DNA of 64,000 nt from an uncultured Planctomycetia bacterium (GCA_964489445.1 CAZAYU010000002.1:355900-419899); one strand, 5' to 3'. Numbered from the stretch's first letter, positions 40,404-58,853 are shown. Program-made: numbers and translations. Notes: generated from the letters alone by a model not told the origin.

Positions 40404-42344
40404 ATGAAAAAATTTATCAGTGCTACTATTTGTTTTAGCGTATTTGCTTTAAGTTTATTTTGCATTTCAGTAAAATCTGAAGAGACAAGTAAGCCATTAA
40501 AAGATATTTTTAAAGAATTTGGAATCTTAATAAATGGAGTAGGTGATTTTGTTGTTCAAAAAAATATAAGAAAAGAAGGGCTTGAAAATTCATTCTGGAC
40601 AATTGTTGCAGAAAAAGACGGGAAAGTAATTAAAATAGAAGCTATAAATAATATTAATTCCCAAGAAGCCCGAAAATATGCTGAAGAAAGACAGAATATA
40701 GTTAAGGCTTTATATCAACGTATTCCTTCTCCTTATCCCGGCATGATTTCAAACGTTATAGAGTGCCCCGATGAATTAAAACCTGAGATTGTATCTTTAG
40801 ATATAGAAGGGAAGATAGTTTCTGCATATATCTTGTATAGCACGCCTAGATTCACCTATGGAGCTGGAGTTGAGGAATTGATTAAATATAGGGGAGTTTT
40901 GATGTTTATCTATGGGGATAAGGTAAGAACGTTGTATAGAGTTGAAATATTTATTCCTAAAGAAAAATTTAACAAAAAGGAAATAGTAGATATTTTAAAA
41001 TCAATTCGCTTAGAAAAAGGAGGCAGCTATCCTAAACAAGACTATGTCAATGCTTCGGAAAAGGCATGGGGTGAACCCTATAGAAAAACAGATATTTCTG
41101 AAGGCTATAATTTAATTATCATCGGGTTTGACCCCTTGGGTGCAAAGCATATTGGTGCTTATGGATACCACAGGAATACTACTCCTAATCTGGATAACTT
41201 TTCAAAAAAGGCTTTTTTGTTTAAAAATGCCATTAGTTCTTCCAGCTGGACGCTACCTTCATTTATGTCTTGGTTTACGTCATTGTATCCTTCGCAGCAT
41301 AAGATTGTTAATAAATATAGTACTTACACTGAAGAGAAGCAGGTTCTTTCTAACCTTTCAACGCTTTCCCCTTCTGTTGTTACCCTGGCGCAAATTTTAA
41401 AAAGAAACGGATATCTAACTGCCGGGTTTACCGGTGATGCAGGAGTTGGGGGTGTTTTCGGCTATAGCTTAGGGTTTGATGTTTATTATGATAAAATAAA
41501 ATTTGCCGGATTCGACATTGTTCTGCCCATGGCTTTAGATTGGCTTAATGAACATAGGCTCAAGAAATTTTTTTTATTTATCCAAGGCTACGATGTTCAT
41601 GGGCAACATAGCCTTGGCGATGATTTTAGGAATATATTTGTTAGCAAAAATTATGATGGAAAGTATAGGGGTACAACAAAAGAGTATTGGGATTTAAGGA
41701 ATAAGAGCCTAGAGCAGAAATGTCTGGAGATGAACGATGAAGATATAAATTTTTGGAATGCATGGTATGATACAAAAATATATAAAGCTGACCAAAGATT
41801 AGGAAATTTCTTCAAAGAGATAGAAAAGTTAGGGTTAATGGAGAATACGGTGGTGGTTATTTCTTCAGCATCAGGGAATGAATTTTATGAACATAAAAGG
41901 TTTGATCATGGCCATAGTTTGTATGATGAGCTGGTACACGTTCCTCTAGTGATACGGGTTCCGGAAAAGAACGGATGCGCGATAGAAAGCCAAGTGCGGA
42001 CTATTGATATCATGCCGACAGTATTAGACTTATTGAATATAGAAATTGATAAGAATATTAAATATAAAATACAAGGGGTAAGCTTAGCTTCACTCATGGA
42101 GGGAAATGAGTTAGATCTAGATGCTTTTTCTGAGACTGATTATTTATCTCAGGTTTTTAAACGTTCCATAAGAACACACAATGGCTGGAAGTTTATATAT
42201 TCAATAGAGACTGAGCAGCGCGAGCTATATAATTTGAATGAAGACCCTTATGAGGCGTATAATTTAATCAATAAAGAACAGAAGATTGCTTATGAACTTG
42301 AACAAAGAATTTTTAATTGGTCTGAGAGCTTAAAAAGGAAGTAA
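40404..42344 (+). CDS. Exported sulfatase-fold (alkaline-phosphatase superfamily, PF00884-like) enzyme, paralog 1. It lacks the Cys/Ser-x-Pro-x-Arg FGly motif, so it is a probable phospho-transferase or phosphodiesterase rather than a sulfatase.
   Basis: Signal peptide. A roughly 200-aa N-terminal domain. Then 'YNLIIIGFDPLGAKHIGAYGYHRNTTPNLDNF' and 'SSSSWTLPSFMSWFTS', with Thr where sulfatases have the FGly Cys. C-terminal 'LYNLNEDPYEAYNLI' sulfatase-type block. Confidence 0.7.
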   Translation: MKKFISATICFSVFALSLFCISVKSEETSKPLKDIFKEFGILINGVGDFVVQKNIRKEGLENSFWTIVAEKDGKVIKIEAINNINSQEARKYAEERQNIVKALYQRIPSPYPGMISNVIECPDELKPEIVSLDIEGKIVSAYILYSTPRFTYGAGVEELIKYRGVLMFIYGDKVRTLYRVEIFIPKEKFNKKEIVDILKSIRLEKGGSYPKQDYVNASEKAWGEPYRKTDISEGYNLIIIGFDPLGAKHIGAYGYHRNTTPNLDNFSKKAFLFKNAISSSSWTLPSFMSWFTSLYPSQHKIVNKYSTYTEEKQVLSNLSTLSPSVVTLAQILKRNGYLTAGFTGDAGVGGVFGYSLGFDVYYDKIKFAGFDIVLPMALDWLNEHRLKKFFLFIQGYDVHGQHSLGDDFRNIFVSKNYDGKYRGTTKEYWDLRNKSLEQKCLEMNDEDINFWNAWYDTKIYKADQRLGNFFKEIEKLGLMENTVVVISSASGNEFYEHKRFDHGHSLYDELVHVPLVIRVPEKNGCAIESQVRTIDIMPTVLDLLNIEIDKNIKYKIQGVSLASLMEGNELDLDAFSETDYLSQVFKRSIRTHNGWKFIYSIETEQRELYNLNEDPYEAYNLINKEQKIAYELEQRIFNWSESLKRK

Positions 42345-42424
42345 TTTTATTTTTGATTTGCTTGTAGTAGATATATGGTTTTTAAAGTTATTTGATAGGT
42401 TGTGTATATTAAGATAGTAAAAGC

Positions 42425-42721
42425 ATGAATAAAAAAAATATCCTAAAAATAATAGCTGATTCAATCAGCGAAATTAATGAAATGAGGCCTAATGATGAAT
42501 ACATCGGTCAAACTTTGGAAACTATTTTGTTTGATACTTCTAGAGAAATTGATTCACTAGAATTTGTAATGTTGATTGTATCGATAGAGAAAAAACTCAA
42601 GAAAGAGTCTGGCAAATGTGTGATTTTAGCAGAAGGAAAAACAATGTTGTACAAAGATGCTTCTTTTCGAAGTGTTGGTGCACTGGTTGATTATATTGAC
42701 TCTATTTTAAAGGACAGCTAA
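42425..42721 (+). CDS. Acyl/peptidyl carrier protein (ACP 1)
   Basis: 98 aa. Phosphopantetheine-attachment motif 'EIDSLEFVMLI' (DSL). It directly abuts the FkbH-like gene. Confidence 0.65.
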   Translation: MNKKNILKIIADSISEINEMRPNDEYIGQTLETILFDTSREIDSLEFVMLIVSIEKKLKKESGKCVILAEGKTMLYKDASFRSVGALVDYIDSILKDS

Positions 42722-44419
42722 GTGTCTAAGATTAAATCAATAATCGTAACAGATTTTACTGCCGATGCCTTAAAAGGCTACCTAAACAATGATACCTGCT
42801 ATCCTTTAGTTAACGCAAAGATTACGCCATTTGCTCAGGTTATGCAATCTTATTTCAAGAGATTTCCAGAATTTGGAAAAAATAAGATTAACTTTGCAGT
42901 TGTCTGGACTAGACCAGAAGGCGTTATTGAATCTTTTATGCGCTTTGCTAATTATCAAAGCGCATCAATTAATGAGATATTAGCCGATGTCAACGAGTAT
43001 TGCCGGTTTTTAATAGGTCTTCAAGATAAGGTAAAATTAGTATTTGTTCCGACATGGATTTTCCCTACTTATCATAGAGGACATGGAATGCTGGAAATGA
43101 GAAAAGATTTAGGCATTAGAAATATTCTTATGCAAATGAACTTAATGCTTTCTGATAAGTTAAATGAAACAAAGAATATTTATTTATTGAATGCTCAAAG
43201 ATGGATTGAAAGCGTAGGCAGTGATGCTTTTGATTCAAAGTTGTGGTATTTAGCTAAGATTCCTTTTGATGCTGCAATCTTCAAGGAAGCGGCAAAAGAT
43301 ATTAAGTCTGCATTAAGAGGTATATTTGGTGTTGCAAGAAAGATGATAATCGTTGATTTAGACAATACGATCTGGGGAGGTTCTGTTGGAGAAATAGGAT
43401 GGGAGAAGCTTAAACTTGGCGGGCATGATCCAGTAGGAGAAGCTTTTGTTGACTTTCAGAGAGCTTTAAAGTCATTTATTAACCGTGGCATTTTATTAGG
43501 TATTGTTAGCAAAAATGAGCCGTCCGTTGTGTTAGATGCAATAAATAATCATCCAGAAATGTGTCTAAGATTAAATGATTTTAGTGCATGGGCGATTAAC
43601 TGGGAAGATAAAGCTAAAAATATCATTCGTTTAGCATCGAATTTAAATATTGGTCTTGAATCAATAGTCTTTATTGATGATAATCCATTAGAAAGAGCAA
43701 GGGTCAAAGAGTCTTTGCCGGAGGTTTTTGTTCCTGAATGGCCTAAGAACAAGATGCTGTTTAGGGAAACTTTGCTTAATCTTTCTTGCTTTGATACACC
43801 TTCAATAACTGAGGAGGATTTAGCCAAGACTAGAATGTATATGTCTTTTATCAGCCGTAAAGGGCAGCAAATAAAAATGAAGTCAGTGAATACATGGTTA
43901 AAAAAACTGTTTATTAAAGTAAAAATAGATGAGTTGCAGGATGTTGATATTGAAAGAGTAACGCAACTGTTAAATAAAACAAATCAAATGAATTTAACTA
44001 CTAGACGCCTTATTGCCTCAGAGTTGGATATTTGGGCCCATAAAAGAAATCATAAGCTTTGGACTTTTCGAGTTTCAAATAAATTTGGGGATTTAGGCTT
44101 AGTAGGTGTGGTAAGCCTTGGAATAAACAGAAAAGAAGGCAGGATTGTAGATTTTGTTTTAAGCTGCAGAGCTTTTGGGTTAAGGATTGAAGAAGCTATG
44201 CTCATTGCAACTATACGGTATTCTCAAAGTGTTGGTTTAATAAAAGTGCAGGCAAAATATATCAGCACTCCTAAGAATAAGCCTTGTTTAAATTTTTGGA
44301 GAAAAACAATATTTGAATTTGACAAAAAAAGAAATATCTTTTTTTATAGTCCAGGAAAAACTCATTATTTTCCGCGATACATTACAATAGTAGACAATCG
44401 ACGCAGTGATCCCTGTTAG
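42722..44419 (+). CDS. FkbH-like HAD-superfamily (subfamily IIIC) glyceryl-ACP loading enzyme
   Basis: HAD motif I 'MIIVDLDNTIWGG'. Motif II 'GIVSKN'. Motif IV 'VFIDDNPLERARV'. A C-terminal roughly 200-aa FkbH-type domain. 565 aa. Confidence 0.75.
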   Translation: MSKIKSIIVTDFTADALKGYLNNDTCYPLVNAKITPFAQVMQSYFKRFPEFGKNKINFAVVWTRPEGVIESFMRFANYQSASINEILADVNEYCRFLIGLQDKVKLVFVPTWIFPTYHRGHGMLEMRKDLGIRNILMQMNLMLSDKLNETKNIYLLNAQRWIESVGSDAFDSKLWYLAKIPFDAAIFKEAAKDIKSALRGIFGVARKMIIVDLDNTIWGGSVGEIGWEKLKLGGHDPVGEAFVDFQRALKSFINRGILLGIVSKNEPSVVLDAINNHPEMCLRLNDFSAWAINWEDKAKNIIRLASNLNIGLESIVFIDDNPLERARVKESLPEVFVPEWPKNKMLFRETLLNLSCFDTPSITEEDLAKTRMYMSFISRKGQQIKMKSVNTWLKKLFIKVKIDELQDVDIERVTQLLNKTNQMNLTTRRLIASELDIWAHKRNHKLWTFRVSNKFGDLGLVGVVSLGINRKEGRIVDFVLSCRAFGLRIEEAMLIATIRYSQSVGLIKVQAKYISTPKNKPCLNFWRKTIFEFDKKRNIFFYSPGKTHYFPRYITIVDNRRSDPC

Positions 44420-44481
44420 CCAATTTTTAAATTAGAAGCGAGTAAAAATTTTAGCTTGATATAAGCGGTAGCCAATTCTAG

Positions 44482-45921
44482 ATGCTATTTACTTCATTAC
44501 AATTTGCAGTATTTTTTATTATTGTTTATGGAGTATATACTCTGCTTAAACACAGACAACAGAATATTATGCTTCTTGTGGCCAGTTATATTTTTTATGG
44601 AGCATGGGATTGGAGATTTTTATTTTTGATATTTATATCAACTGTTTTTGATTATTTTTTTGGGGCAGCAATATATAGGTCTAATAGCAATAAGCAAAAA
44701 AAAATATTTGTTTTTTGTAGTATTTTTACAAATTTATCTATTTTAGTGTTTTTTAAATATTTAAATTTTTTTATTCTGAATTTGCAGTTTTTATTAAGAC
44801 GTTTTAATCTGCCTAATGTAATTTTTCCTTTACACATAATACTTCCTTTGGGGTTGTCTTTTTATATTTTTCAAAAAATGAGCTATACCATAGATATATA
44901 TAGAGGTGAGATGAAACCTGTAAGAAAATTTTCAGATTTTGCACTTTTTGTAAGTTTCTTTCCCCAGCTTCTTGCAGGGCCAATCGAAAGAGCAAAGCAC
45001 CTTATTCCGCAGATAATCTTTCCTAGAAAATTAACCATGGATAAATTTCAAAAAGGCTGTTATCTAATATCTTGGGGCATATTCCAGAAACTTTTTGTTG
45101 CGGATAATTTATCAAAAGTTGTGGATTCTGTATTTTCTAATCCGGGTCCTTACAATGGTTTAGAAGTTTTGTTAGCTTCTTATGCTTTTACATTTCAGAT
45201 ATTTTGTGATTTTGCAGGTTATAGCAATATAGCAAGGGGTCTTGGTAAATTAATGGGATTTGATATTATCAATAATTTTGATCTCCCATTTTTTGTTACA
45301 AACGTACAAGATTTTTGGAAAAAATGGCACATTAGCTTGAGCACTTGGATTAAGGATTATGTGTATTTTCCGCTTTTTTATCACATGCGAATGATTAGAG
45401 GTAAAATGCGTATCTATATTACATTAGTAGGTACGATGATTTTGTTAGGCTTGTGGCATGGCGCAAGATGGACCTTTGTCCTTTTTGGGTTATATTATGG
45501 TTGTTTGCTTAGCTTGTATGTAATGTCAAAACCTGTTTTATGCAAAGCGATAAAAATTGTAAAATTCACAAAAAGCAGGCAGTGGTTTTGGGTTAAAGTT
45601 ATTTTCATGTTTCATATTACAGTGCTTGGAATGCTAATTTTTAGAGCTAATTCTGTTGGCCAGCTAATACAAATGGTTCATAGCGTTGTGTTTAATTTTT
45701 CTATTCCAGAATATTCGATTATGCTCAGAATGATCGGAAAAATATTATTTTATATTAGTTTTTTGTTACTTATCCAGTATTTTCAATTTAGAAGAAATGA
45801 TCATTTTGTTGTTCTTAAATGGCATTGGGCGTTGCAAGGATTTATATATTTTATAATTATGTTTTTTTTGTTTACTTTTGGCAAAAGCGGAGGAAATGAG
45901 TTTGTATATTTTCAATTCTAA
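44482..45921 (+). CDS. MBOAT-family membrane O-acyltransferase (DltB/AlgI-like), copy 1
   Basis: MBOAT signature 'FWKKWHISLSTWIKDYVYFPL' with the conserved His. About 10 TM helices. Confidence 0.85.
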   Translation: MLFTSLQFAVFFIIVYGVYTLLKHRQQNIMLLVASYIFYGAWDWRFLFLIFISTVFDYFFGAAIYRSNSNKQKKIFVFCSIFTNLSILVFFKYLNFFILNLQFLLRRFNLPNVIFPLHIILPLGLSFYIFQKMSYTIDIYRGEMKPVRKFSDFALFVSFFPQLLAGPIERAKHLIPQIIFPRKLTMDKFQKGCYLISWGIFQKLFVADNLSKVVDSVFSNPGPYNGLEVLLASYAFTFQIFCDFAGYSNIARGLGKLMGFDIINNFDLPFFVTNVQDFWKKWHISLSTWIKDYVYFPLFYHMRMIRGKMRIYITLVGTMILLGLWHGARWTFVLFGLYYGCLLSLYVMSKPVLCKAIKIVKFTKSRQWFWVKVIFMFHITVLGMLIFRANSVGQLIQMVHSVVFNFSIPEYSIMLRMIGKILFYISFLLLIQYFQFRRNDHFVVLKWHWALQGFIYFIIMFFLFTFGKSGGNEFVYFQF

Positions 45922-47152
45922 TTTCCGAAAGATTCTGCGATTTTTCATGCTTAATCGTGCTTTTTTTGCTGGAGTTTTATTTTTTTGTTTTTCGCAATTA
46001 ATTTGTTTGAATATTTCCAATATAAGCAAAACAAGGCATAAGCAAGTGATAGAGCACAAGCGACAAGCAGTAAAGAGTATCGATTTCAGCAAAGATAAAG
46101 GATTGCGAGAGTCTGTATTTTTTTTTGGCTCATCCAAGATCTTAGCAGCTATAATTCCAAAATTTTTTGACGAATGCAATGAAGATGGAACATATTCTTA
46201 TAATTTTGCAATACCAGGATTACCATTGGCATCTCAATATTTTATTTTTAAAGAATATTTGGAAAAAACCGAAGTACCCGATTATGCAATAATAAAACTA
46301 AATAATGGAATATTTCCTCTTTGGCTTTTTCCTTCTTTTTCTATTCAAGGCGCGAGTTTGTCCGAGGTTTTGCAGTATGCTTTTCTTACGAAAGATGTAT
46401 CAATGTTATTTAACTATTTTATTCCATCAAGGGTGTATTGGTCCGGCATTAGCAGATTTATTGCTGGTAGGGCCCTATCTTTAGTACCTGATAGCGTGCG
46501 GGCATTACATAAATCAAGATATCTTAATTTTTTTTCTAGTAAAAATATGTATTACTATAATTGGGAGTTTGAATATGATGCTAGCTACATTTTTCCAAAA
46601 GAATATGCAAGAGCGTTGAGAGAATCTTTAGAAAAGAATCGAGGATATTATTATATGGTGGAAAAGGCTATGCCAAGAACAGGCGCTTTTGAAAGTATTA
46701 CAGTGCCACCGAAACACAGAAAATACTATGAAGCAATAATAGAGGCGGGTAGGGAAGGAAAAAACTTTAAAGGGCCTGTTTCTGTAAAGACTACAAAGCG
46801 CGAAAGAGATACGAAAAAGAAGCTTGATACTTTTTTCTTGGATAAATTTTTTATATTGGCCAAAGATTATAAGTGTAAAGTCATTTTGGTTGGAGATTAT
46901 ATGCCTGATAGCAACAAAGATACTCCAGGCGTTTATATTGAGGAAAATATAACCCTGGGCTGTTGGGAGCTATTGCAAAAAAAATATGATAATGTATTTT
47001 TTTTAAAGGATGGCTTTAAGACCGTATTTTATAGTCCGGATTTTTTTTCTGACCCCGAACATTTGGATTATGAGGGGGCAAAAAAATTTACAAAAAAGAT
47101 TGCTAAGGAATTTCAAGCAATAAAAAAAATAATCAAAAGCAATAAACAATAA
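45878..47152 (+). CDS. DltD/AlgJ/AlgX-like (SGNH-related) acyl-transfer partner protein
   Basis: N-terminal TM anchor. 'VFFFGSSKI' corresponds to the DltD GSSE nucleophile block. C-terminal 'DPEHLDYEGAKKF' corresponds to the D..H catalytic block. The start may be the ATG at 45896. It overlaps the MBOAT gene's end. Confidence 0.6.
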   Translation: MAKAEEMSLYIFNSNFRKILRFFMLNRAFFAGVLFFCFSQLICLNISNISKTRHKQVIEHKRQAVKSIDFSKDKGLRESVFFFGSSKILAAIIPKFFDECNEDGTYSYNFAIPGLPLASQYFIFKEYLEKTEVPDYAIIKLNNGIFPLWLFPSFSIQGASLSEVLQYAFLTKDVSMLFNYFIPSRVYWSGISRFIAGRALSLVPDSVRALHKSRYLNFFSSKNMYYYNWEFEYDASYIFPKEYARALRESLEKNRGYYYMVEKAMPRTGAFESITVPPKHRKYYEAIIEAGREGKNFKGPVSVKTTKRERDTKKKLDTFFLDKFFILAKDYKCKVILVGDYMPDSNKDTPGVYIEENITLGCWELLQKKYDNVFFLKDGFKTVFYSPDFFSDPEHLDYEGAKKFTKKIAKEFQAIKKIIKSNKQ

Positions 47153-47153
47153 A

Positions 47154-48332
47154 ATGCATTTTATAAGTTTAACATATTTGGTATTTCTATTTATATCTGC
47201 TACCATCTATTGGTTTTTTCCCGTCAAGCATCGAAAGTTGTTTTTAATATTTATCAGTTTATTATTTATCTGCAGTTATAAATGGGTAATTGCTTTTTTA
47301 TTTTTATTCATGGGGACAGCGACTTATTTTAGCAGCAGATTTATATTAAGTACGACTTCAAATTGGAAGAAAAAAATAATTTTTATATCAATTTTGATTG
47401 GTTTTATAGTAAGTCTCTTTTTATATAAGTATTTTGGGCTAAATTTATTGTTGGTACATTCATCTTTTGAATCATTTGATTTTCTTATAGCGCTGGGGTT
47501 TTCATATGTTTCCTTTAGAATGATACATTATATTATTGAGAGCTACCGGAAGAATGTTCCTGACGTTTCATTCTTGGATTTTATTTGTTATGTTGTGTTT
47601 TTTCCCATTTTTTTGGCCGGTCCGATAGAAAGATTTCAAGCGTTTCATCGGCAAACAGCGGAAAATAAACACATAGGATTTTATGATGTAAATTATGGAT
47701 TATATCGTATAATTTGCGGTGTTTTTAAAAAGGTTGCTGTTGCAGACGTTATAAGCAAGCTAATCACGCCAGTATTATACTATCCTCTTGGCCATTCCAA
47801 AACTATATTGATATTATCGGTATATGGATTGGCGATACAAATTTATATGGATTTTTCTGGGTATACGGATATAGCAATTGGTAGTGCCAGATTATTTGGC
47901 TATCGGCTTACGGAAAATTTTAATAGGCCATTTTTACAGAAAAATATAGCGTTGTTTTGGAGAAATTGGCATATATCCCTGTATACTTGGATAAGGGATT
48001 ATTTCTTTTTTCCGTTATTTGGTTATCGGGCATCAAAGGTAAAAATCTATATTGGAATATTTTTCAGTATGATGGTATTTATTCTTTGGCACCGGCTATC
48101 ATTAAGCTTTTTTATCTTAGGATTGTATCATGGAACGGGCCTTATTTGTTGGCATATTTTTCAAGGTGTGAAACGTAAATATCCAATAATTCGTCGAGGA
48201 ATATCAAAACGGTACTTGGATCCTATTTCGATCTTTTTTACGTTTAGTTTTCATGCTTTTGGTACCTTATTCTTTATAATGAATTTTGAGCAGGTATTAA
48301 TTATTGTAAAAAGTATTATAAATCTAAAGTGA
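47154..48332 (+). CDS. MBOAT-family membrane O-acyltransferase (DltB/AlgI-like), copy 2
   Basis: 'FWRNWHISLYTWIRDYFFFPLFG' MBOAT signature. 392 aa. Confidence 0.85.
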   Translation: MHFISLTYLVFLFISATIYWFFPVKHRKLFLIFISLLFICSYKWVIAFLFLFMGTATYFSSRFILSTTSNWKKKIIFISILIGFIVSLFLYKYFGLNLLLVHSSFESFDFLIALGFSYVSFRMIHYIIESYRKNVPDVSFLDFICYVVFFPIFLAGPIERFQAFHRQTAENKHIGFYDVNYGLYRIICGVFKKVAVADVISKLITPVLYYPLGHSKTILILSVYGLAIQIYMDFSGYTDIAIGSARLFGYRLTENFNRPFLQKNIALFWRNWHISLYTWIRDYFFFPLFGYRASKVKIYIGIFFSMMVFILWHRLSLSFFILGLYHGTGLICWHIFQGVKRKYPIIRRGISKRYLDPISIFFTFSFHAFGTLFFIMNFEQVLIIVKSIINLK

Positions 48333-49899: not shown

Positions 49900-50067
49900 T
49901 GATTTTTTGGTTAGACCTTGAAATAGTTTCGTTTTTTGAGAGATTTTTCTTACTTTATATTTATACCATGTTGGGTATTAATTAATAGCTATTGTGTTAT
50001 GCATAGGCTTATAGCAGAAATTTTCTGTTGATGTGTCAAGAACTTTGTATACTTTAAATGTTGATAA

Positions 50068-50076
50068 TGCTATAAT
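50068..50076 (+). promoter_or_regulatory. Candidate extended -10 promoter element (TGcTATAAT) about 90 bp upstream of ACP 2
   Basis: 'tgctataat' at 50068-50076 in an AT-rich 265-bp intergenic region. Confidence 0.25.
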
Positions 50077-50164
50077 TTTTCTAGAGGGCGGAATAGATAG
50101 GTAAGATATATTGCGTAATGTGCCGTATTATGTAAGCGTAATGATTATTAAGAAGGAGGTGAAT

Positions 50165-50416: not shown

Positions 50417-50418
50417 TA

Positions 50419-52857
50419 ATGTTTAATATAAGAATTAATAATGTTACATATGATTTTTCGCGGGAGAAAAATGTTATGATGGCTTTGCGTTTCAAAGGGG
50501 CAAGGCAGCAATGTTTATTTAAGTATGCACGAAATATAAGAGATAAAGTTTTCTCTAAACAGGTCGAAATAAGGAGTGTTATCGAGTATTCTAATGTTTG
50601 TCAGCAGGCATGTAATTATTGCGGAATGAGCAAAGCGTCAATGGTAACTCGTTACATATTAAAAAGAAATCAGCTAATATCTCGTGTTAATAAGTTATAT
50701 GATTGTGGACGTAGAATTATAATATTACAGGCGGGTGAGTGCAATAATGATAATTATTTAGATAATTTGTTTGGCCTAATTAAGATGTTAAAAAATGAAT
50801 ATCCTTATTTAGTCATAGTGGGTAGTTTTGGTAATTTATCGCGAGATAATTATAAAAGATTGAGGGATATTGGGGTCGATAGGTATTTACTTAAATTTGA
50901 AACATCAGATGCTAAGCTATACAGAAGAATTAAGCCTACCGATTGTCTTAAAAAAAGACTAGATTGCATTACATTTTTAAAGAAAATAGGTTTTTATGTC
51001 AGCTCTGGCAATATAACTGGGATACCGCAACAATCTCTTAGTAGTTTAGCTGATGATATTTTTTTACTTAAAAAATTAGATATTTGCATGGGTAGCACAT
51101 CACCTTTTATTCCTAACGAGGTTTCTAATTATAGAGATTGTTTTCCGGGAGATATTAATCTTACGCTTAATTTTATAGCAATCCTAAGGATACTCTGTCC
51201 GACTATGTTAATACCTGCTACAAGTTCTTTGGAATTGATTATAAAGGGAGGCCAGTATCTGGGGCTGATGGCAGGAGCAAATGTGCTTACTTTGCATGAT
51301 GGAACTCCCGCAAATAAAGAAAAAATGTTTTTGTTGTATAAAAAGAATCGGTACAAGCCTAAGGGAATTCTATTTAATATTGTTCAAAGAGCAGGCCTGA
51401 AGCCAAGCTTATTTTCTCTTGTTAAGAATAAAGCAGAAAACTCTCTTTTTTATAAACTCGTTAGCCAGAATGTCAATCGTAAGAGTTCTTATATTTATTC
51501 CGATAGCAGTAGGTATACATACGAGGAAGTGCTATTATTGACTTCGAAATGCTGTTCGTTCTTGCAAGGCAATAATATTAAGGAGAGGGATGTAGTAATG
51601 TTAGCTTTATTTGATTCAATAGAATTCATTATTGTTTGCCTAGCTTGCATAAGACTAGGCATAATTGTTGCACCGATAGATCCGCTATCAACTGTAGACG
51701 AGCTAAGGTTTTTAATCTCTGATTGTGTACCCAAAATTATATTAGCAACAGATAGTATTGCTAAGAAATTAAGATACAAGAATGTTATGAAAATAACCAA
51801 CGATAATTGCCCTAAATATTTTTTTTCGTTGCTCTGCAGGAGAAAAAAAAGTATTTTTTTAGCTGCTGTTGATAAAAATAATCCGGCTATTATTTTGTAT
51901 ACTTCTGGGACTACAGGCAAGGCCAAAGGTGTAGTCCACAGCTATAATGATCTACTTACTATGAATTTTCCACATAAGATATTGAGGGTATGCAAAAAAG
52001 ATATTTTCTTTTCTTATTCTAGGATTTATACTAGTTTTGGTTTTGGTAATAGTTTACTTTTTCCGTTATATTGTGGTGCGTCTGTAATTTTATCCAGAAA
52101 TATCCCAAATCCGGTTGCATTGTCTGATGTGTTATTGTATAATCCTACATTATTTTTTGCGGTTCCCGGCGTGTATAAGCTATTGTTAAGAAGTAGAAAA
52201 CTAATAAAACATAATTTTAGTTGTGTTCGTCAATTTATTTCTTCTGGTGAGAGTCTCGGTGAGGATATTTTTAAGCAATGGGAAAAAGTTTATGGCTTTA
52301 GGTTATTGGATTGTTTTGGAACATCTGAGATGTGCCATCCGTTTATTTCGAATATTCCGGGAGAGGAAAAATCTGGGACTTGCGGAAAAACGGTAGAAGG
52401 ATTTCAGGTAAAGTTTGATAAAAAAGGTAAAATGTTTTACAAGGGGCCTTCCTTGTTTTCTGGATATTATAGAAGGAATAAATTTGTAAAAGAAACAATG
52501 GTGGTTGATGGATGGTTTGAATCAAATGATATTGGACGCGTAGATAAAAATGGCAGTATAGTTTTAAAAGGCAGAGACAATCTAATATTTAAGATTAATG
52601 GTAAGTGGATTTCAGCCTTAAATATAGAGGATAAAATAAATCGATTGGAGTTAATAAAGGAAAGCGCTGCTATAAAGAAAGCAGACGGTTTATATCTGTA
52701 TGTTTCTTTAAATTTAAAGGAAATAAAACCTGTTGAGGCTATAAGCTTAGTAAGAAGTTATTGTGTAGAAAAATTGAAAATTAACGAATTTCCCGTAAAA
52801 ATAAACTTGTTAGATGAAATACCGAAGACAAGAAGCGGGAAAATTAAAAGACAGTAA
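50419..52857 (+). CDS. Fusion protein: N-terminal HydE/PylB/BioB-like radical SAM domain plus C-terminal adenylation (AMP-binding, acyl-CoA-synthetase/DltA-like) domain
   Basis: Radical SAM: 'IEYSNVCQQACNYCGMS' (CX3CX2C) and 'IIILQAGE', reminiscent of HydE/PylB 'SNYC..NC.YCG...VLQSGE'. Adenylation: 'ILYTSGTTGKAKGVV' (A3), 'GESLG', 'GFRLLDCFGTSE' (A5), 'GWFESNDIGRVDKNGSIVLKGRDNLIFKINGKWI' (A7/A8), 'PKTRSGKIKRQ' (A10). It is a single 812-aa frame. Confidence 0.75.
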   Translation: MFNIRINNVTYDFSREKNVMMALRFKGARQQCLFKYARNIRDKVFSKQVEIRSVIEYSNVCQQACNYCGMSKASMVTRYILKRNQLISRVNKLYDCGRRIIILQAGECNNDNYLDNLFGLIKMLKNEYPYLVIVGSFGNLSRDNYKRLRDIGVDRYLLKFETSDAKLYRRIKPTDCLKKRLDCITFLKKIGFYVSSGNITGIPQQSLSSLADDIFLLKKLDICMGSTSPFIPNEVSNYRDCFPGDINLTLNFIAILRILCPTMLIPATSSLELIIKGGQYLGLMAGANVLTLHDGTPANKEKMFLLYKKNRYKPKGILFNIVQRAGLKPSLFSLVKNKAENSLFYKLVSQNVNRKSSYIYSDSSRYTYEEVLLLTSKCCSFLQGNNIKERDVVMLALFDSIEFIIVCLACIRLGIIVAPIDPLSTVDELRFLISDCVPKIILATDSIAKKLRYKNVMKITNDNCPKYFFSLLCRRKKSIFLAAVDKNNPAIILYTSGTTGKAKGVVHSYNDLLTMNFPHKILRVCKKDIFFSYSRIYTSFGFGNSLLFPLYCGASVILSRNIPNPVALSDVLLYNPTLFFAVPGVYKLLLRSRKLIKHNFSCVRQFISSGESLGEDIFKQWEKVYGFRLLDCFGTSEMCHPFISNIPGEEKSGTCGKTVEGFQVKFDKKGKMFYKGPSLFSGYYRRNKFVKETMVVDGWFESNDIGRVDKNGSIVLKGRDNLIFKINGKWISALNIEDKINRLELIKESAAIKKADGLYLYVSLNLKEIKPVEAISLVRSYCVEKLKINEFPVKINLLDEIPKTRSGKIKRQ

Positions 52858-52974: not shown

Positions 52975-54402
52975 ATGGTTAAAATTATATATCGTTTATT
53001 TTTTGTTTTTATGGGCCTTACAATAGTGAATGGAGCATGGTGTTTTGAATTCTGTGCTTATGGGCAGGCTAAGGATGGATCTATGAGTATTAGGAAGAAA
53101 ACAGCATATAATGTTATTTTAATTTCTGTGCCTTGTTTAAGGTTTGACCATTTAAGCTGTTATGGCTATTCAAGAGCAACTACACCCAATATTGATAAGT
53201 TTGCTAAAAAAAGTTTTCTTTTTACTCAAGCGTATTCTCAATCTACATGGACTTTACCGAGTATGGCATCGTTGTTTACTTCTAAGGATGTAATAGATCA
53301 TAAAGTATTTAATTGTGAAACTAAACTTGCAGATTTTGAGTTGACTCTTGCTGAAGTATTAAATATTTTTGGGTACAAGACAGCAGCATTTACTTCGGGG
53401 GTTCATTTTAATAAGAGGTTTAATTTACATCAAGGGTTTGATGTGTATGAAGATATTCCTTTTTCTACATCTGCAGTAAAAACAGGAAAGATAGGGTTAA
53501 AATTAACTGGTAAAAGAGAGATAAAAGATTTTTTTCCCTCTATCGTTGAGTGGCTTGAATGTAATCGGGGTGAAAAGTTTTTTTTATTTGTGGATATTAA
53601 CGATGTGCATCAACCATTTTATTCGCCCGAAGATGGTGATGAAAATATGTTTGATCCCGAATATGAGGGTATAGTAGATAGCCTTTATCTAGATTCATTG
53701 TTAAAAGAGAAAATGCGTGGAGATTTAATAGTAAGGGACGACGGAGAAGTAATAAAGTTGCAAAAGAAGGATGTAGATCATATAATTTCACATTATGATG
53801 CGGGGATCTATTATACAGATAAGTATTTTGGGAAATTAATGAATGAACTTGGCAATATGCAATTGTTAGAAAATACTATAGTTATTTTGACATCTCCGCA
53901 CGGGATTGACCTTTTTGATCATTTTACGTTGTTTCATTATACACATAGCTATCCGTATGAAGAATTAGTTCATGTTCCCTTAATATTTTTTCATCCTAGC
54001 ATAGAAGCAAGTAATATGCGGATTAAGGAACGAGTTCAGCTAATTGATATTTTTCCTACTATTTTAGAGTGTTGTAATATTACTGTGCCCAAGGCAATAA
54101 AAGGAGTTAGTCTATTTTCTTTGATTAAAGATGGAGAAAACATAGATTTATTAAATCGAGATATTTATTTTACATCTGCAATTCCTTCAGGGAGTGATTT
54201 TACCTGGAAAAGCACATATGGTGTTCGTGCATTAAATTGGAAGCTTTTTATGCGGTTTAGTAAACCTCATTGCTCTGTGTATGAATTATATAATTTAGAT
54301 GAAGACCCTTACGAATTAAATAATTTGATTTACGAAGAAAAAGACGTCAGAACGCAGCTAATCATAAAACTTAATGAATGGATAAAGAATGCAGATGAGT
54401 AA
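52975..54402 (+). CDS. Exported sulfatase-fold enzyme, paralog 2 (Thr in the nucleophile position, no FGly motif)
   Basis: Signal peptide. 'LRFDHLSCYGYSRATTPNIDKFA'. 'SQSTWTLPSMASLFTSK'. C-terminal 'LYNLDEDPYELNNLI'. The first metal-ligand Asp pair appears to be replaced ('ISVPCL'). Confidence 0.7.
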   Translation: MVKIIYRLFFVFMGLTIVNGAWCFEFCAYGQAKDGSMSIRKKTAYNVILISVPCLRFDHLSCYGYSRATTPNIDKFAKKSFLFTQAYSQSTWTLPSMASLFTSKDVIDHKVFNCETKLADFELTLAEVLNIFGYKTAAFTSGVHFNKRFNLHQGFDVYEDIPFSTSAVKTGKIGLKLTGKREIKDFFPSIVEWLECNRGEKFFLFVDINDVHQPFYSPEDGDENMFDPEYEGIVDSLYLDSLLKEKMRGDLIVRDDGEVIKLQKKDVDHIISHYDAGIYYTDKYFGKLMNELGNMQLLENTIVILTSPHGIDLFDHFTLFHYTHSYPYEELVHVPLIFFHPSIEASNMRIKERVQLIDIFPTILECCNITVPKAIKGVSLFSLIKDGENIDLLNRDIYFTSAIPSGSDFTWKSTYGVRALNWKLFMRFSKPHCSVYELYNLDEDPYELNNLIYEEKDVRTQLIIKLNEWIKNADE

Positions 54403-54640: not shown

Positions 54641-56206
54641 TTGCAACCAGATATTATGGTTAAAAATAATTGTTTGTTTCTTAAGAGGAAAATTTTATTG
54701 ATAATATTCGGAATATTTTTTTCTTTAATAGTTGTTGAGCTGGGATTGCGAATCGTTGGGTGGGGGTGGTCGGCGCATGATAACTTTAGAAATAAATCTT
54801 ATTTGGTTGAAACCGATTCGGATACAATCAGGATTCTTTGCTTGGGGGCATGCTATACAGCTGGAGTGGGAGTTGAGCCAGATAAAACATATCCACATTA
54901 CTTAGAGAAATTTTTAAGCGAGCATTACCCAACAAAATCTTTTCGTGTTATTAATCGAGGTGTTCGTGGTAAAACATTGTCGTTTTTTGTGAATCGGTTA
55001 GAGCGTTTTGTAAAAGATTATTCTCCTCGAATAATTATTATGAATATAGGAAGTAGTGTGGATTTTTATGAGAAAAATGTGCTTTTAGCGAATAGCAATT
55101 TATTATCTTCTGTTGATAAAATTAAAATTAGCTTGCGTATATTTCTCAAAAAATTTAAAATTTATAGAGTGTTTAATCTTATGTTTTCTTCACTAAACAG
55201 AAGAAATGCGGAAATAAACGATAAGGAGGATATTTCTCGAGAATTTTATGCGGAAGGTGAAGAAAATAAGTATCATGCCCAGGTTAGGGAGTTGCAATGT
55301 AAAGTTAAGGTAGACCCACAATCTTCTGAAAATTGGAGTCGTCTTGCTTTTATTTATGCAGACCAAGGGCTTTATCAGTTGTCAGAAAAATACATAAAAA
55401 AAGCCATAGAACTTGACCAAAACAATGGATGGAATTATTTGCATTTATTTTGGTGTTATGTCTTTCAACGTGAGTATGAATTAGCGGTAAGGTCTCAAAA
55501 ACAAGCGCTAGATGTGGACCCTGCTATTATCAAATGGCTGGATGATGAGATAAAAAATATCAATGGATTTATAAAGCGTAAGCCGTATGTAATGTCATAT
55601 TATTTCCATTTATCAGATAGGTATGCTATGCTTGGTGATTATGAGCGCGCTATAAAAACGCTAAAACAGATTTTATATAAAGGTCCTGACCATATTGATT
55701 ATGTTGATAGATTGTCTTTTTATGAGACAGTGGTTCGAAAAACAAAGAACAGCGATGAAATATGCGTAAATAGTTCAGTAGGTAGGAAAAAGTATTTCAA
55801 TCGGGAAAATAGCCAGCATTGGGCGTTTATGGCTGAAGCAGAAGGCTTTCTTAAAGAAAAAATACCCGTAAATGATTCAGAAAAACTAGATGGATGTAAA
55901 ATATTTGACAGATTATTTAAATATAATTTAAGAAAAATTAATAAAATTGCCAGAAAATATAATATTAAATTTTTTCTTGAAAATATGGGGTCTTCATTTG
56001 AGCAGCAAGAGATTGTAGAAAGTGCTTGCAAAGAATCAAATATACCTTTGGTTGATTTGTATTCTTATTTTAGAAATACATCGGATGATGCGAGCCTTTT
56101 CCATTCTTCTGTTTCCTTGAGGCTTAGTGAAAAAGGGAATAAAATTGTAGCTGAGAAAATATTTAAAGCGTTAGTAAGTGCTGGTGTTGTAGATGAGGTT
56201 AATTAG
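54641..56206 (+). CDS. SGNH-like paralog with an inserted TPR-repeat region. The catalytic GDS is replaced by GAC.
   Basis: 'IRILCLGACYTAGVGVE...YPHYLEKFLSEHYP...INRGVRG' is collinear with the 18268 protein 'IRVMCVGDSTTFGVCVD...YPTILERLLKAKYP...LNTGIPG'. A TPR-like segment spans about residues 200-330. The probable start is the ATG at 54656. Confidence 0.6.
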   Translation: MQPDIMVKNNCLFLKRKILLIIFGIFFSLIVVELGLRIVGWGWSAHDNFRNKSYLVETDSDTIRILCLGACYTAGVGVEPDKTYPHYLEKFLSEHYPTKSFRVINRGVRGKTLSFFVNRLERFVKDYSPRIIIMNIGSSVDFYEKNVLLANSNLLSSVDKIKISLRIFLKKFKIYRVFNLMFSSLNRRNAEINDKEDISREFYAEGEENKYHAQVRELQCKVKVDPQSSENWSRLAFIYADQGLYQLSEKYIKKAIELDQNNGWNYLHLFWCYVFQREYELAVRSQKQALDVDPAIIKWLDDEIKNINGFIKRKPYVMSYYFHLSDRYAMLGDYERAIKTLKQILYKGPDHIDYVDRLSFYETVVRKTKNSDEICVNSSVGRKKYFNRENSQHWAFMAEAEGFLKEKIPVNDSEKLDGCKIFDRLFKYNLRKINKIARKYNIKFFLENMGSSFEQQEIVESACKESNIPLVDLYSYFRNTSDDASLFHSSVSLRLSEKGNKIVAEKIFKALVSAGVVDEVN

Positions 56207-57446
56207 TAGAGTTTTGCTTTTTTTGTTTATTTTTTTTATCTGTATTGTGTTGTTTGGTAAGATAAATGTAAAATCTGCTGAACAATCTGATTATAACGTA
56301 ATTATTATTAATCTTGAAGGCTTGAGTGTTGGCGATATTGGTTGCTGTAGGGGGGCAAGTCCTAACATAGGTAATTTTATTAAAGAAGGGATAATATTTA
56401 ATCAAGTAGCAACGCAGAGTCCATGGTCTTTTTCTAGCCAAGCATCAATATTAACTTCAAAATATGTTCATGCGCATGGTGTTTATAACAAAAATCAAAA
56501 ATTATCGGAAAAAGAAATGACTTTAGGTGAAGTTTTAAAAATATATGGGTACAATACCGCGGCTTTTATTGGTAGCTTAGATGTGGTAGCTGATAGCGGG
56601 TTAAATCAAGGTTTTGACTTATATCGTTACAATAAAGGCAGGAGTGGAATTCAATGGACAAAAATAATTTTTAACAAGGCATTACAATGGCTAAAGAAAA
56701 ACAAAGATAGTAAGTTTTTTTTGTATTTAAATATCGAAGGGCTGTATCCTTCTTCAGAGTTTTTAAGTAAAGACAGGAAAGTAGACAAAAGTAATAGTAT
56801 CTCTATAGGTAGAAACTGTGATGAATATGTTCTCTTAATGAACAAATTTACAGGAAAATTGTTAGAGCGTGTGGAGCATTTTGGGTTGGCGGATAAAACT
56901 ATGATTTTCTTGATATCTGGATTTGGTAGAAAATTATCAAACAGAAATGAGTTAAATCGAGACAATCTTAATGAAGAATTTGTCCATGTCCCCTTAATGG
57001 TTAGGTATCCCGGTTGCCCAAAGAATAAGCAAATTGAAGAAGCAGTCCAACTTATTGATATTATGCCTACTATCCTTGATTTTTTAGATATCCCGTTAAA
57101 TAAAGAGGCGCAAGGCAAAAGCATAATTTCAGTTGTTGAGAATGTGAAAAGTATAGGAGAGATTAATCCATATGTTTATTCTGAATCTGACAGGGGTAAA
57201 GTAGCAATAAGAACAAAGAAATGGAAAATGATAACATGGCTCGGAAACTATAAGTTGTACAATCTTAATGATGACCCCTTAGAAATAAATGATTTAGCAT
57301 GTCAAAACCCAGATATTGTTTATGAATTTGTTCAAAAGCTATCCGAGTGGTACAAGCAAACCAAGCCCCTAAAGCCATTTTCTATTGATAGGGTTAATAT
57401 TACTGACGAGGTAAGGAAAAAATTGATGGAGATAGGATATTGGTAG
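56193..57446 (+). CDS. Exported sulfatase-fold enzyme, paralog 3 (Ser in the nucleophile position; divergent)
   Basis: 'ATQSPWSFSSQASILTSKYVHAHG'. C-terminal 'LYNLNDDPLEINDLA'. Signal/TM N-terminus. Confidence 0.65.
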   Translation: MRLISRVLLFLFIFFICIVLFGKINVKSAEQSDYNVIIINLEGLSVGDIGCCRGASPNIGNFIKEGIIFNQVATQSPWSFSSQASILTSKYVHAHGVYNKNQKLSEKEMTLGEVLKIYGYNTAAFIGSLDVVADSGLNQGFDLYRYNKGRSGIQWTKIIFNKALQWLKKNKDSKFFLYLNIEGLYPSSEFLSKDRKVDKSNSISIGRNCDEYVLLMNKFTGKLLERVEHFGLADKTMIFLISGFGRKLSNRNELNRDNLNEEFVHVPLMVRYPGCPKNKQIEEAVQLIDIMPTILDFLDIPLNKEAQGKSIISVVENVKSIGEINPYVYSESDRGKVAIRTKKWKMITWLGNYKLYNLNDDPLEINDLACQNPDIVYEFVQKLSEWYKQTKPLKPFSIDRVNITDEVRKKLMEIGYW

Positions 57447-57494
57447 CCAGTTTACTTTAATGTTGTGTTAGGTTGTTAGCGGATAATCAAAAAA

Positions 57495-58853
57495 ATGAGA
57501 AAGATTATTTTTTTTAATATATTAGTAATTTTAAATTTAATTTTTTTTGATTTTATCTTATATGCTGATAGTGAGAAAAAGGGGAGGCCTGAAACAAGAA
57601 AGAAACATAATATCATTTTAATAGATGTTGACTCCCTAAGACCCGATCATTTAAGCTGCTATGGGTATAAAAGAGCAACTTCTCCTGGTATTGACGAATT
57701 GGCATCTAGAGGTATTCTTTTTAGACAGGCGATTAGTCAATCTAACTTTACTCTTCCTAGCATAGCTTCCTTATTTACTTCCAAATATGTTTCTGCTCAC
57801 GGGGTTAATTTAGATGATAAGAAGCTTAATCAGATGGAGCTCACTCTAGCGGAGATACTGAAAATTTATGGTTATTCTACGGCAGCTTACGTGGGAACTC
57901 CTCATTTAAATAAAATATATGGCTTTGATCAGGGGTTTGATTTGTATCATGATGAGTTTCAGGATAATCCAGAAGGGTCTTTTAAGGTAATAATGCCTCT
58001 AGCGATTGAATGGATCGAAAATCATAAATGGACTAATTTTTTTCTTTTTTTACATAGTTATGATGTTCACACATCTTATCATTGTCATCCCGACTTTGAT
58101 AATATCTACGATCCTGGCTATAAAGGTATTGTTGATATGCTATATTTGCATTATGCTTTTCTTCAAAAAGTTAAAAAAGGTGAAGTCTTCTTAGATGAAA
58201 ATAAAACTCAAAAAATAACATTAACGCAGAAAGATATTGACCATATTATTGCTCACTATGATGGAGGAATTACTTATGCAGATCATTATGTTGATTTATT
58301 GATTAGTAAATTAAGAGAGTTAAGCATTTTAAAAGATACAATAATTTTTTTATTTTCTTCTCATGGAGAAGGACTTTTAGACCATCAAAAACGATATTTG
58401 CAGCTTGAAGGACCGGAATTTTCCGGATTCGGACACACTAATTTGTATTATGATGAGGTCTTAAGAGTGCCGCTCATCATCTATCATCCGGGTATTAAAG
58501 GTAAATATGAAATATTTTCTCAAGTTCAGCTTATTGATATTATGCCTACTATTCTTGATTTTTTGGATATCCAGTTTAATGAAGAAGCACAGGGCAAAAG
58601 CGTAGTTCCTCTTATCGAAGGAAATGCTAGTGAAGATTTCAATAAATACGTATTCTCAGAGATAGGTTATGGTTTTTTAGCTGTAAGGACAGAAAAGTGG
58701 AAATTAATATGCTATGAGGAAGAATGTGAGCTTTACGATTTAGATAATGACCCAAAAGAATCAAATAATTTAAGCAATAAGAGACCAGACATTGTTAGTG
58801 AATTATTTCTAATTTTGAGAAAATGGCATATCAGCAATAAAAATAATAGTTAA
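57495..58853 (+). CDS. Exported sulfatase-fold enzyme, paralog 4 (Thr in the nucleophile position)
   Basis: 'IDVDSLRPDHLSCYGYKRATSPGIDELA'. 'SQSNFTLPSIASLFTSKYVSAHG'. C-terminal 'LYDLDNDPKESNNLS'. Confidence 0.7.
   Translation: MRKIIFFNILVILNLIFFDFILYADSEKKGRPETRKKHNIILIDVDSLRPDHLSCYGYKRATSPGIDELASRGILFRQAISQSNFTLPSIASLFTSKYVSAHGVNLDDKKLNQMELTLAEILKIYGYSTAAYVGTPHLNKIYGFDQGFDLYHDEFQDNPEGSFKVIMPLAIEWIENHKWTNFFLFLHSYDVHTSYHCHPDFDNIYDPGYKGIVDMLYLHYAFLQKVKKGEVFLDENKTQKITLTQKDIDHIIAHYDGGITYADHYVDLLISKLRELSILKDTIIFLFSSHGEGLLDHQKRYLQLEGPEFSGFGHTNLYYDEVLRVPLIIYHPGIKGKYEIFSQVQLIDIMPTILDFLDIQFNEEAQGKSVVPLIEGNASEDFNKYVFSEIGYGFLAVRTEKWKLICYEEECELYDLDNDPKESNNLSNKRPDIVSELFLILRKWHISNKNNS

Follow-up and report, generated by a model that had tools for sequence, protein, structure and literature searches.

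An envelope-glycan locus of an uncultured Planctomycetia bacterium encodes four proteins with sulfatase-family sequence blocks (S1 to S4), which raises the question of whether these are sulfatases at all and, if not, what chemistry they might perform. The locus lies in a 64-kb stretch of DNA (CAZAYU010000002.1:355900-419899), referred to below as the window, with positions counted from its first nucleotide. The four open reading frames (ORFs) are:

S1: 40404..42344, plus strand, 646 aa, PF00884 and SGSH_C domains
S2: 52975..54402, plus strand, 475 aa, PF00884 and SGSH_C domains
S3: 56193..57446, plus strand, 417 aa, PF00884 and SGSH_C domains
S4: 57495..58853, plus strand, 452 aa, PF00884 and SGSH_C domains

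An earlier note on this DNA had described four exported proteins with sulfatase-family blocks, and the ORFs are indeed real. All match PF00884 (Sulfatase; E 5e-28 to 1e-42) and PF16347 (SGSH_C, the C-terminal subdomain of true sulfatases; E 1e-12 to 4e-19) in Pfam, whereas matches to PF01663 are secondary and weaker. The C-terminal LY(D/N)L..DP.E..(N/D)L block is present in 4/4. Each protein has exactly one hydrophobic segment, which is N-terminal and consistent with export, as the note proposed, or with an N-terminal anchor.

The formylglycine position

The register of the active site was set by pairwise HMMER alignments to solved formylglycine (FGly) sulfatases. T86-L-P-S-I90 of S4 aligns on FGly-G-P-S-R of SpAS1 (4upi) and on C61-V-P-A-R65 of EfAS (9koq), and T93-L-P-S-M of S2 corresponds to S4 column for column. 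S1 T283-L-P-S-F aligns on S-S-P-H-R of 8di0, and S3 S79-F-S-S-Q on S-G-P-S-R of BT4656 (5g2v). The C/S-x-P/A-x-R motif is absent from all four proteins; S3 lacks both the Pro/Ala at +2 and the Arg at +4. These alignments agree with the manual assignment made earlier (Thr or Ser in place of Cys, and Ile, Met, Phe or Gln in place of Arg), which was therefore not shifted.

In EfAS the metal ligands are D20, FGly61, D311 and H312, and sulfate is bound by R65, K110 and K324 with H112 and H220 (PMC12421950). S4 has D46, T86, S289 and H290 at the metal positions. At the sulfate-binding positions R65 is replaced by I90 and K110 by T135, with H137 kept. The Lys that follows D-H-G (equivalent to K324 of EfAS) is not conserved, and is Thr in S4 (aligned with 4upi), Gly in S1 and Arg in S3. 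Because I90, T135 and this Thr replace Arg and Lys, the positive charges that hold sulfate have been lost together with formylglycine in S4.

Thr cannot yield formylglycine, and on this argument the authors of SulfAtlas do not count as sulfatases the many PF00884 members that have Thr at this position (PMC5066984). Given Thr or Ser at the FGly position and the lack of Arg at +4, we conclude from the aligned residues that S1-S4 are not formylglycine sulfatases. This part of the earlier proposal stands, and the replaced sulfate-binding residues of S4 and the lack of a maturase in the window also support it.

Altered metal sites

None of the copies has the canonical Asp/FGly/Asp-His set. The cores read D/T/A-S in S1, P/T/P-H in S2, E/S/G-F in S3 and D/T/S-H in S4. 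The Asp of the D-H-G metal motif is absent in 4/4 (replaced by A-S, P-H, G-F and S-H, respectively), a point that the earlier note had overlooked, and S1 and S3 are the only sequences in a set of 122 (described below) that also lack its His.

S4 (D46 / T86, nt 57750-57752 / S289-H290, nt 58359-58364; AlphaFold2 model with pLDDT 93.7) is the window copy nearest to the family consensus, off by one ligand. Substitutions at the Asp position of D-H-G by Ser, Ala, Gly, Thr, Asn or Tyr recur in minor clades of the family, with the His kept.

In S2 (P53 / T93, nt 53251-53253 / P308-H309) Pro stands in for both acidic ligands, and the Thr and several His are retained. Its nearest relative in an exhaustive search (46% identity) has the core D-T-D-H, so the Pro/Pro state is lineage-specific. 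The earlier note held that this paralog had lost the first Asp pair of the metal site; a Pro does occupy the position of the N-terminal metal Asp, but the family has a single Asp there rather than a pair.

S3 (E42 / S79, nt 56427-56429 / G243-F244) is the most degenerate of the four. It has also lost the motif Pro, has Tyr for the conserved His of D-x-H and has shortened loops. It lies on a long terminal branch of a neighbor-joining (NJ) tree, and no homolog with more than 39% identity was found among the 5.8 billion proteins searched. Judged by their sequences, the metal-ligand changes of S2 and S3 are lineage-specific losses. A degenerate copy with the core E-S-S-A occurs among five otherwise canonical paralogs elsewhere (locus L026, 8436-9929; related loci are designated by L numbers throughout). 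Thus, inactive-looking copies are not unique to the window.

After its hydrophobic segment (aa 3-25), S1 has an orphan N-domain of alpha+beta type (~28-206), which a disordered linker (207-232) connects to the sulfatase fold (~236-646; AlphaFold2 model with pLDDT 85.6). Its core is D243 / T283 (nt 41250-41252) / A489-S490 (nt 41868-41873), the last pair standing where D-H is expected. A dedicated search recovered about 75 'long' orthologs of 626-705 aa from several phyla, with 41-64% identity (S1-long hereafter). They share a conserved core, [D/E]-T-[A/G]-S, and the motifs [D/E]-P-L-G, SPSSW-T-LP.FMSWFTSLY and SS-[A/G]-S-G-N-E-[FY]-Y-E-H. Invariant residues include H299, D397, H399, N492, H502 and E509, and a polar pocket is formed by T/S283, H249, H299, D397, H399, N492, E493, H497, D501 and H502. 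Since ~75 orthologs conserve [A/G]-S and these motifs, the S1-long pattern is that of purifying selection acting on a remodelled site, not of decay. Recent decay of all four copies had been suggested by the D-T-D-H core of a syntenic S1 ortholog in L006 (Omnitrophota); this idea was dropped for S1 because of the conserved [A/G]-S, and is retained for S2 and S3 alone.

The N-domain of S1 (~180 aa; window 40485-41021, aa 28-206) is confidently predicted as alpha+beta by AlphaFold2 and has the invariant motifs PSPYPG and RFTYG. Neither the Pfam scan nor a profile search of PDB sequences identified relatives. The same domain occurs as a free-standing small ORF in L026 (1753-2382) and L031 (1-432), in both cases beside a gene for a protein like those of the nucleotide pyrophosphatase/phosphodiesterase (NPP) family.

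Relationship to sulfatases and to LtaS/EptA

Thr at the nucleophile position had led to the proposal that these proteins are phosphotransferases or phosphodiesterases of the LtaS/EptA/OpgB kind. The comparisons place them elsewhere. The best sequence matches are FGly sulfatases and phosphonate monoester hydrolases (PMHs), with 92 bits for a single sequence and 206 bits by family profile (4upi), and LtaS, EptA and MCR-1 are absent from the PDB profile matches at E<=1e-30. A comparison of structures, suggested earlier as a check on LtaS/EptA versus arylsulfatase, also went against the proposal: the top 50 PDB matches of the S4 AlphaFold2 model in Foldseek are all FGly sulfatases or PMHs (TM 0.66-0.75), and neither LtaS nor EptA is among them. 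In NCBIfam, arylsulfatase and choline-sulfatase models score 78-142 bits, whereas those for EptA (16-39 bits, cut-off 561), CptA (22-34, cut-off 404) and LtaS (33, cut-off 970) remain far below threshold. The YejM model scores 19-43 bits (cut-off 825), and S3 has the highest of these scores (43). With SGSH_C present and no multi-pass membrane domain, S1-S4 are, by their sequences and predicted folds, sulfatase/PMH-derived proteins outside the LtaS/EptA/OpgB group.

S4 also matches a 'manganese-dependent arylsulfatase' model, which was considered as a precedent for a Thr-type sulfatase. It was set aside, as the model belongs to EfAS, which uses formylglycine.

A Thr-type branch of the sulfatase family

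That PF00884 includes Thr-type non-sulfatases is well established, and S1-S4 belong to a large group of them. A search with S4 recovered 2566 proteins at E<=1e-10. The consensus was drawn from 122 sequences (the best 120 relatives of S4 plus the window paralogs), and reads W-T(100)/S(22)-L-P-S-x-x-S-[LI]-F-T-S-[KR]-Y at the FGly position. At +4 the residues found are His, Leu, Phe, Gln, Val and Ile; Arg never occurs there. The most frequent cores are D-T-D-H (62), N-T-E-H (16) and D-S-Y-H (10), and the His is kept in 120/122. An exhaustive search with S2 among 1.84 billion cluster representatives returned 9689 at E<=1e-30; in the 113 nearest representatives of 50%-identity clusters, the nucleophile position is T in 106, S in 5 and C in 1, with D-T-D-H cores in 91. 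The marks of the branch (W-[TS]-L-P-[SA], no Arg at +4, an S-x-x-T-S-[KR]-Y helix and SGSH_C) fit all four window copies, S3 loosely.

Since D-T-D-H is the ligand set of Thr-nucleophile enzymes of the alkaline phosphatase superfamily, we infer by analogy that the branch may perform phosphoryl rather than sulfuryl transfer. Where its members have names in the source databases, these are 'sulfatase' or 'arylsulfatase A-like enzyme'. The hosts, represented by metagenome-assembled genomes (MAGs), are Omnitrophota, Elusimicrobiota, Patescibacteria, Acidobacteriota, Aminicenantes, Planctomycetota, Desulfobulbaceae and uncultured archaea. Literature searches for a soluble Thr-type sulfatase-fold enzyme and a profile search of the PDB found no paper on, or solved structure of, a branch member.

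Genomes carry sets of 2-6 non-orthologous paralogs (e.g., five copies in L026 and six in L029). A rough NJ tree places S1 in subgroup A, S3 in subgroup E and both S2 and S4 in subgroup D; members of subgroups A, C and E lie side by side in L006, L036 and L042. Tandem fusions (P0282, P0285, P0295, P0299, P0309 and P0313) of 900-1550 aa contain two to four Thr-type sulfatase-like domains each. Because distinct subgroups recur side by side and fused forms exist, the paralogs are probably non-redundant and work together.

Genomic context

The window is occupied by an envelope-glycan locus of low GC (0.30-0.38), with glycosyltransferases, three ArnT-like GT-C enzymes and flippases. Nearly all of it reads from the plus strand (43/46 ORFs of at least 150 aa in the 64 kb); the exceptions on the minus strand are the genes at 28531-29409 and 62930-63856 and an ORF (56651-57124) inside S3. 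GC skew is positive in each 2-kb bin, and cumulative skew climbs steadily across the window. The features nearest to the sulfatase-like genes are:

30960..33002, plus strand: NPP-like exported protein of the alkaline phosphatase superfamily (680 aa; Pfam Phosphodiest, E 5e-30)
33103..36456, plus strand: DUF2490 protein and ABC transporter (permease, ATPase and SsuA/TauA-like binding protein; Pfam)
36624-38066 and 38079-39563, plus strand: two B12-binding radical-SAM (S-adenosylmethionine) enzymes, which with the methyltransferase listed next lie immediately upstream of S1
39529-40305, plus strand: class I SAM methyltransferase, directly 5' of S1
47154..48332, plus strand: DltB-like MBOAT (MBOAT_b; Pfam MBOAT; LTA_dltB 158 bits, below the cut-off of 375)
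54641..56206, plus strand: membrane-anchored SGNH-hydrolase with TPR, between S2 and S3, with a 14-nt overlap with S3 (Pfam)

The block 30960-42344 contains the NPP-like gene, the SsuA-like/ABC genes, the radical-SAM/methyltransferase genes and S1 in one run, with the DUF2490/ABC genes between the NPP-like gene and the radical-SAM/methyltransferase/S1 block. The D / T / S-S-D-H-G core motifs of the NPP-like protein were read by eye, and the Asp and Thr are putative; in its PDB alignments the NPP segment that includes the putative Thr is covered, as is, weakly, the SSDHG segment. Homologs of 650-700 aa occur beside S-like genes in L026 (49%), L031 (55%), L054 (73%), L055 (53%), L010, L043, L050 and L051. 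The gene overlaps the next one in L054 (where this is the S1 ortholog), L031 and L026.

The ABC binding protein scores 122 bits on the NCBIfam SsuA_fam model (under the cut-off of 163). In L055 the same ABC set is found close to S1-long and the NPP-like gene, and orphan NMT1 (SsuA-like) proteins adjoin S-like genes in L025, L026, L027 and L029. The DUF2490 protein (33103-33753) follows the NPP-like gene, and in L054 a Porin_O_P protein (6942-7961) has the equivalent place; BLAST detects no similarity between the two at E 1e-5.

Homologs of the MBOAT at 47154 adjoin SGNH-TPR and S-like genes in L006, L036 and L029, and homologs of the SGNH-TPR protein (34-37% identity) adjoin S-like genes in L006, L036, L029 (two copies) and L046. 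A run at 42722-48332 encodes an FkbH-domain protein (TIGR01686, 1.9e-74) followed by two DltB-like MBOATs; the 424-aa ORF between the MBOATs (45878-47152) has no Pfam or NCBIfam match. On TIGR04072 ('lipid biosynthesis B12-binding/radical SAM protein', cut-off 360) the ORF at 48610 reaches 550 bits. Downstream of it, within 48610-52857, are genes for a carrier protein (50111-50416) and for an 812-aa polypeptide in which a HydE/PylB-like radical-SAM domain is joined to an acyl-AMP ligase. This segment has the appearance of an unusual unit for loading acyl or aminoacyl groups, and the FkbH and MBOAT genes together with the carrier protein and ligase resemble a Dlt-like pathway.

Several further features were observed. 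The window encodes three ArnT-like PMT_2 proteins, an ArnC-like GT2 and an ArnD-like deacetylase (1660-3300, 11471-13075, 20214-22550, 4361-5095 and 10208-11137), and in a Desulfobulbaceae MAG (L055, 12699-21332) a complete Arn operon for lipid A aminoarabinose directly adjoins an S1-long ortholog. A 564-aa ORF at 7101-8795 has no Pfam or NCBIfam match. Downstream of the glycan locus are genes for a DUF4956 protein and an 872-aa CotH-like protein (L023, 18909-21437). A phosphonate pathway was considered on the basis of Phosphonate-bd and PhpK-like matches and rejected, as these are far below cut-offs and no scanned ORF belongs to a PEP mutase family.

Radical-SAM enzymes and the maturase question

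No SPASM domain was found in the nine radical-SAM ORFs of the window, and lacking as well from the 64 kb are a formylglycine-generating enzyme (FGE) domain and an anaerobic sulfatase-maturating enzyme (anSME). The earlier statement that no SPASM-type maturase is present is therefore upheld for the window. It had also named an adjacent FGE or anSME gene beyond the window as something that would speak against its reading. The downstream flank yielded only one candidate, a 359-aa SPASM-like radical-SAM protein encoded just outside the window, ~9.7 kb downstream of S4 (L023, 17090-18169), which is the sole SPASM-class enzyme found near sulfatase-like genes. Its SPASM match is weak (E 0.005), its best family models are NirJ2, AhbD and peptide maturases (60-75 bits), and its PDB matches are SkfB (3e-8) and anSME (6e-6). 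On these matches we classify it as a generic SPASM-class enzyme and not an anSME ortholog. In any case it does not rescue the sulfatase reading, because S1-S4 all lack the S/C-x-P/A-x-R recognition motif.

The window contains seven genes for B12-binding radical-SAM enzymes. The pair upstream of S1 has generic similarity to HpnJ, PhpK and ApyD, under cut-offs (Pfam, NCBIfam). It matches models of peptide/protein C-methyltransferases at E 1e-24 to 1e-31, also below cut-offs, and HpnJ, a hopanoid sugar-modifying enzyme, slightly better. The order radical-SAM, (radical-SAM), methyltransferase, S-like gene of subgroup A is found in the window, L006/L034, L036, L042 and L026, and resembles the atsB-atsA arrangement, in which maturase and sulfatase genes adjoin. 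B12 radical-SAM enzymes do modify protein residues. Conceivably, the Thr at the FGly position undergoes modification by the co-located pair and methyltransferase before export (for instance keto oxidation or C-methylation) to give a new catalytic residue, and such a modification could explain how S1-long does without the Asp-His metal ligands. The slightly better HpnJ match and the presence of seven such enzymes in the locus count against this idea, which we regard as highly improbable.

Proposed function and alternatives

We favor, tentatively and with somewhat less than even confidence, a role for these proteins in extracytoplasmic phosphoester chemistry on an envelope glycopolymer or glycolipid, with S4 as the likeliest catalyst, a site of its own in S1, and S3 and probably S2 non-catalytic. 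The proteins would be located outside the cytoplasmic membrane and act on the glycopolymer or glycolipid built by the locus. Members of the branch would perform metal-assisted phosphoryl transfer via a phospho-Thr intermediate, using a single-metal Thr-nucleophile arrangement, and would add, move or trim phosphoester-type, possibly phosphonate-ester, substituents. The companion would be a Dlt-like O-acylation unit made up of the carrier protein, the radical-SAM-adenylase fusion, two MBOATs and the SGNH-TPR protein. Of the four, S4 (D-T-S-H) is the best candidate for a working enzyme. S1-long may use its own conserved, remodelled site ([D/E]-T-[A/G]-S plus the invariant N492, H399 and H502) and is a probable partner of the NPP-like enzyme. 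For S2, with Pro at both Asp positions, and even more for S3 (E-S-G-F), a non-catalytic role as partner or binding subunit is probable. There are precedents for a Thr-type PF00884 enzyme and a membrane O-acyltransferase acting on one polymer, namely LtaS with DltABCD and OpgB with OpgC.

Several points weigh against this proposal. The term 'phosphoester' is derived from analogy of the nucleophile and metal site, and the active-site geometry is itself deduced from alignments. The D-H-G Asp is missing in all four window copies, which makes catalysis in this organism uncertain. Organosulfur chemistry is kept possible by CysD/CysN in L029, a sulfotransferase 10 kb away in L027 and the SsuA/TauA-like binding protein. 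In L054, an S-like gene, a phosphate-selective porin (Porin_O_P), the NPP-like gene, S1-long and another S-like gene lie among housekeeping genes with no glycan genes, an arrangement that fits nutrient scavenging better. The earlier note took four copies to imply several phospho-substituent steps. This presumed four working sites, yet all have lost canonical ligands and S3 nearly the whole site; what survives of the idea is that the Thr points to phosphoryl chemistry for the family.

The L054 arrangement bears on a view in which the proteins build no envelope but are scavenging esterases that, with the NPP-like enzyme, an outer-membrane channel and the ABC importer, take phosphate or an organic head group from the environment or from prey. 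The window order (NPP-like, DUF2490, ABC importer and, further on, S1) and the NPP-like and ABC genes near S1-long in L055 are also in accord with it. However, S2-S4 and their relatives accompany the biosynthetic MBOAT and SGNH-TPR pair, glycosyltransferases and flippases, the binding protein is SsuA/TauA-like rather than PstS-like, and degraded metal sites would be odd in a scavenging hydrolase under selection. We consider scavenging quite unlikely. Somewhat less improbable, although still unlikely, is that all four are pseudoenzymes in this organism, with fold and pocket kept for binding or as a scaffold for the NPP-like or SGNH-TPR/MBOAT machinery and catalysis left to other proteins. No copy has the complete set of canonical metal ligands, S1 and S3 stand alone (2/122) in lacking the D-H-G His, S1-long is translationally coupled in L054 to an NPP-like enzyme that keeps its core motifs, and the paralog fusions suggest complexes. 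YejM/PbgA sets a precedent, since the site in its sulfatase fold is altered and it serves mainly in regulation or binding, but it keeps weak Mg-dependent phosphatase activity (PMC7576196). S4 is likewise difficult to reconcile with a pseudoenzyme, being off consensus at one ligand where substitutions recur family-wide, with the His retained, and the polar pocket of S1-long, invariant over 41-64% identity, looks like a working site.

Transfer of phosphoglycerol, phosphoethanolamine or phosphocholine from membrane phospholipids to the glycan by LtaS/EptA/OpgB-type enzymes, one step per paralog, would account for the Thr nucleophile and the Dlt-like machinery of the locus, and finds some encouragement in the weak local matches to EptA, CptA, LtaS and YejM models and in a phosphatidylserine decarboxylase gene among the L029 paralogs. 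Such transferases depend on their membrane part: the soluble domains of EptA and LtaS hydrolyze substrates but do not transfer without the membrane domains (PMC7576196). S1-S4 have no multi-pass domain of this kind, they score 16-39 bits against cut-offs of 404-970, their SGSH_C subdomain and nearest sequences and folds are those of FGly sulfatases and PMHs, and all four copies lack canonical Asp/His ligands. This reading is improbable. That the proteins are real sulfatases, through formylglycine or another route, is almost certainly wrong, in spite of the fold and best matches, the Ser at the FGly position of S3, the SPASM-like radical-SAM gene ~9.7 kb downstream and the sulfate-activation genes of one related locus (L029). 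Thr gives no formylglycine (PMC5066984), S-F-S-S-Q of S3 is without Pro/Ala at +2 and Arg at +4, the sulfate-binding Arg and Lys are absent, and the downstream enzyme fits NirJ, AhbD and peptide maturases best, with anSME at only E 6e-6.

Implications

Thousands of proteins from uncultured bacteria, and some from archaea, are labelled 'sulfatase' or 'arylsulfatase A-like', and many have been taken as evidence of sulfated-polysaccharide degradation. Within the branch described here such annotations would be wrong, because its members cannot work as FGly sulfatases. Of the parts of the alkaline phosphatase superfamily in which the nucleophile has switched to Thr, this branch lies nearest to true sulfatases, and thus offers a natural experiment in the joint change of nucleophile, metal site and charge-binding residues. 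The multi-paralog sets with fixed neighbors are a candidate module for envelope modification (or scavenging). The single target of greatest interest is S1-long, whose highly conserved pocket does without the Asp-His pair that is conserved elsewhere among the superfamily enzymes compared. New here are the size of this sulfatase-proximal, soluble, Thr-type branch, its fixed pattern of multiple paralogs and neighbors, the conserved S1-long subfamily without Asp-His, and the lack of a canonical core in any of the four window copies.

Comparison with known systems

S1-S4 have in common with FGly sulfatases and PMHs (SpAS1, 4UPI; EfAS, 9KOQ; RlPMH, 2VQR) the two-domain fold with SGSH_C. Shared between these enzymes and the branch are LRxDHL..YGY, the x-P-S of the FGly motif, D-x-H and the C-terminal LYDL..DP.E..NL block. 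D-H-G is likewise common to them and the branch consensus, whereas the window copies lack its Asp and S1 and S3 also its His. The differences are Thr or Ser instead of the Cys or Ser that becomes FGly, no Arg at +4, replacement of the sulfate-binding Lys and no maturase in the window. Enzymes of the NPP family use Thr-nucleophile chemistry of the alkaline phosphatase superfamily, but belong to another branch of it than S1-S4. YejM/PbgA/LapC, a precedent for S1-S3, has a sulfatase-fold periplasmic domain in which the nucleophile position is Thr and the D-H pair includes a non-canonical residue; unlike S1-S4, it has five transmembrane helices and is nearer to LtaS.

The ligands of LtaS are E255/T300/D475/H476, and those of EptA are comparable (PMC7576196). 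This acidic/Thr/Asp-His logic is also that of the branch consensus, and S1-S4 depart from it. Unlike LtaS, EptA, OpgB and BcsG, to which their similarity is very low, S1-S4 have SGSH_C and no multi-pass membrane domain. Shared with LtaS, EptA (MCR-1), OpgB and BcsG are the PF00884 domain, the Thr nucleophile (Ser in S3), an extracytoplasmic location, predicted for S1-S4, and the Dlt-like O-acyl or aminoacyl transfer machinery nearby.

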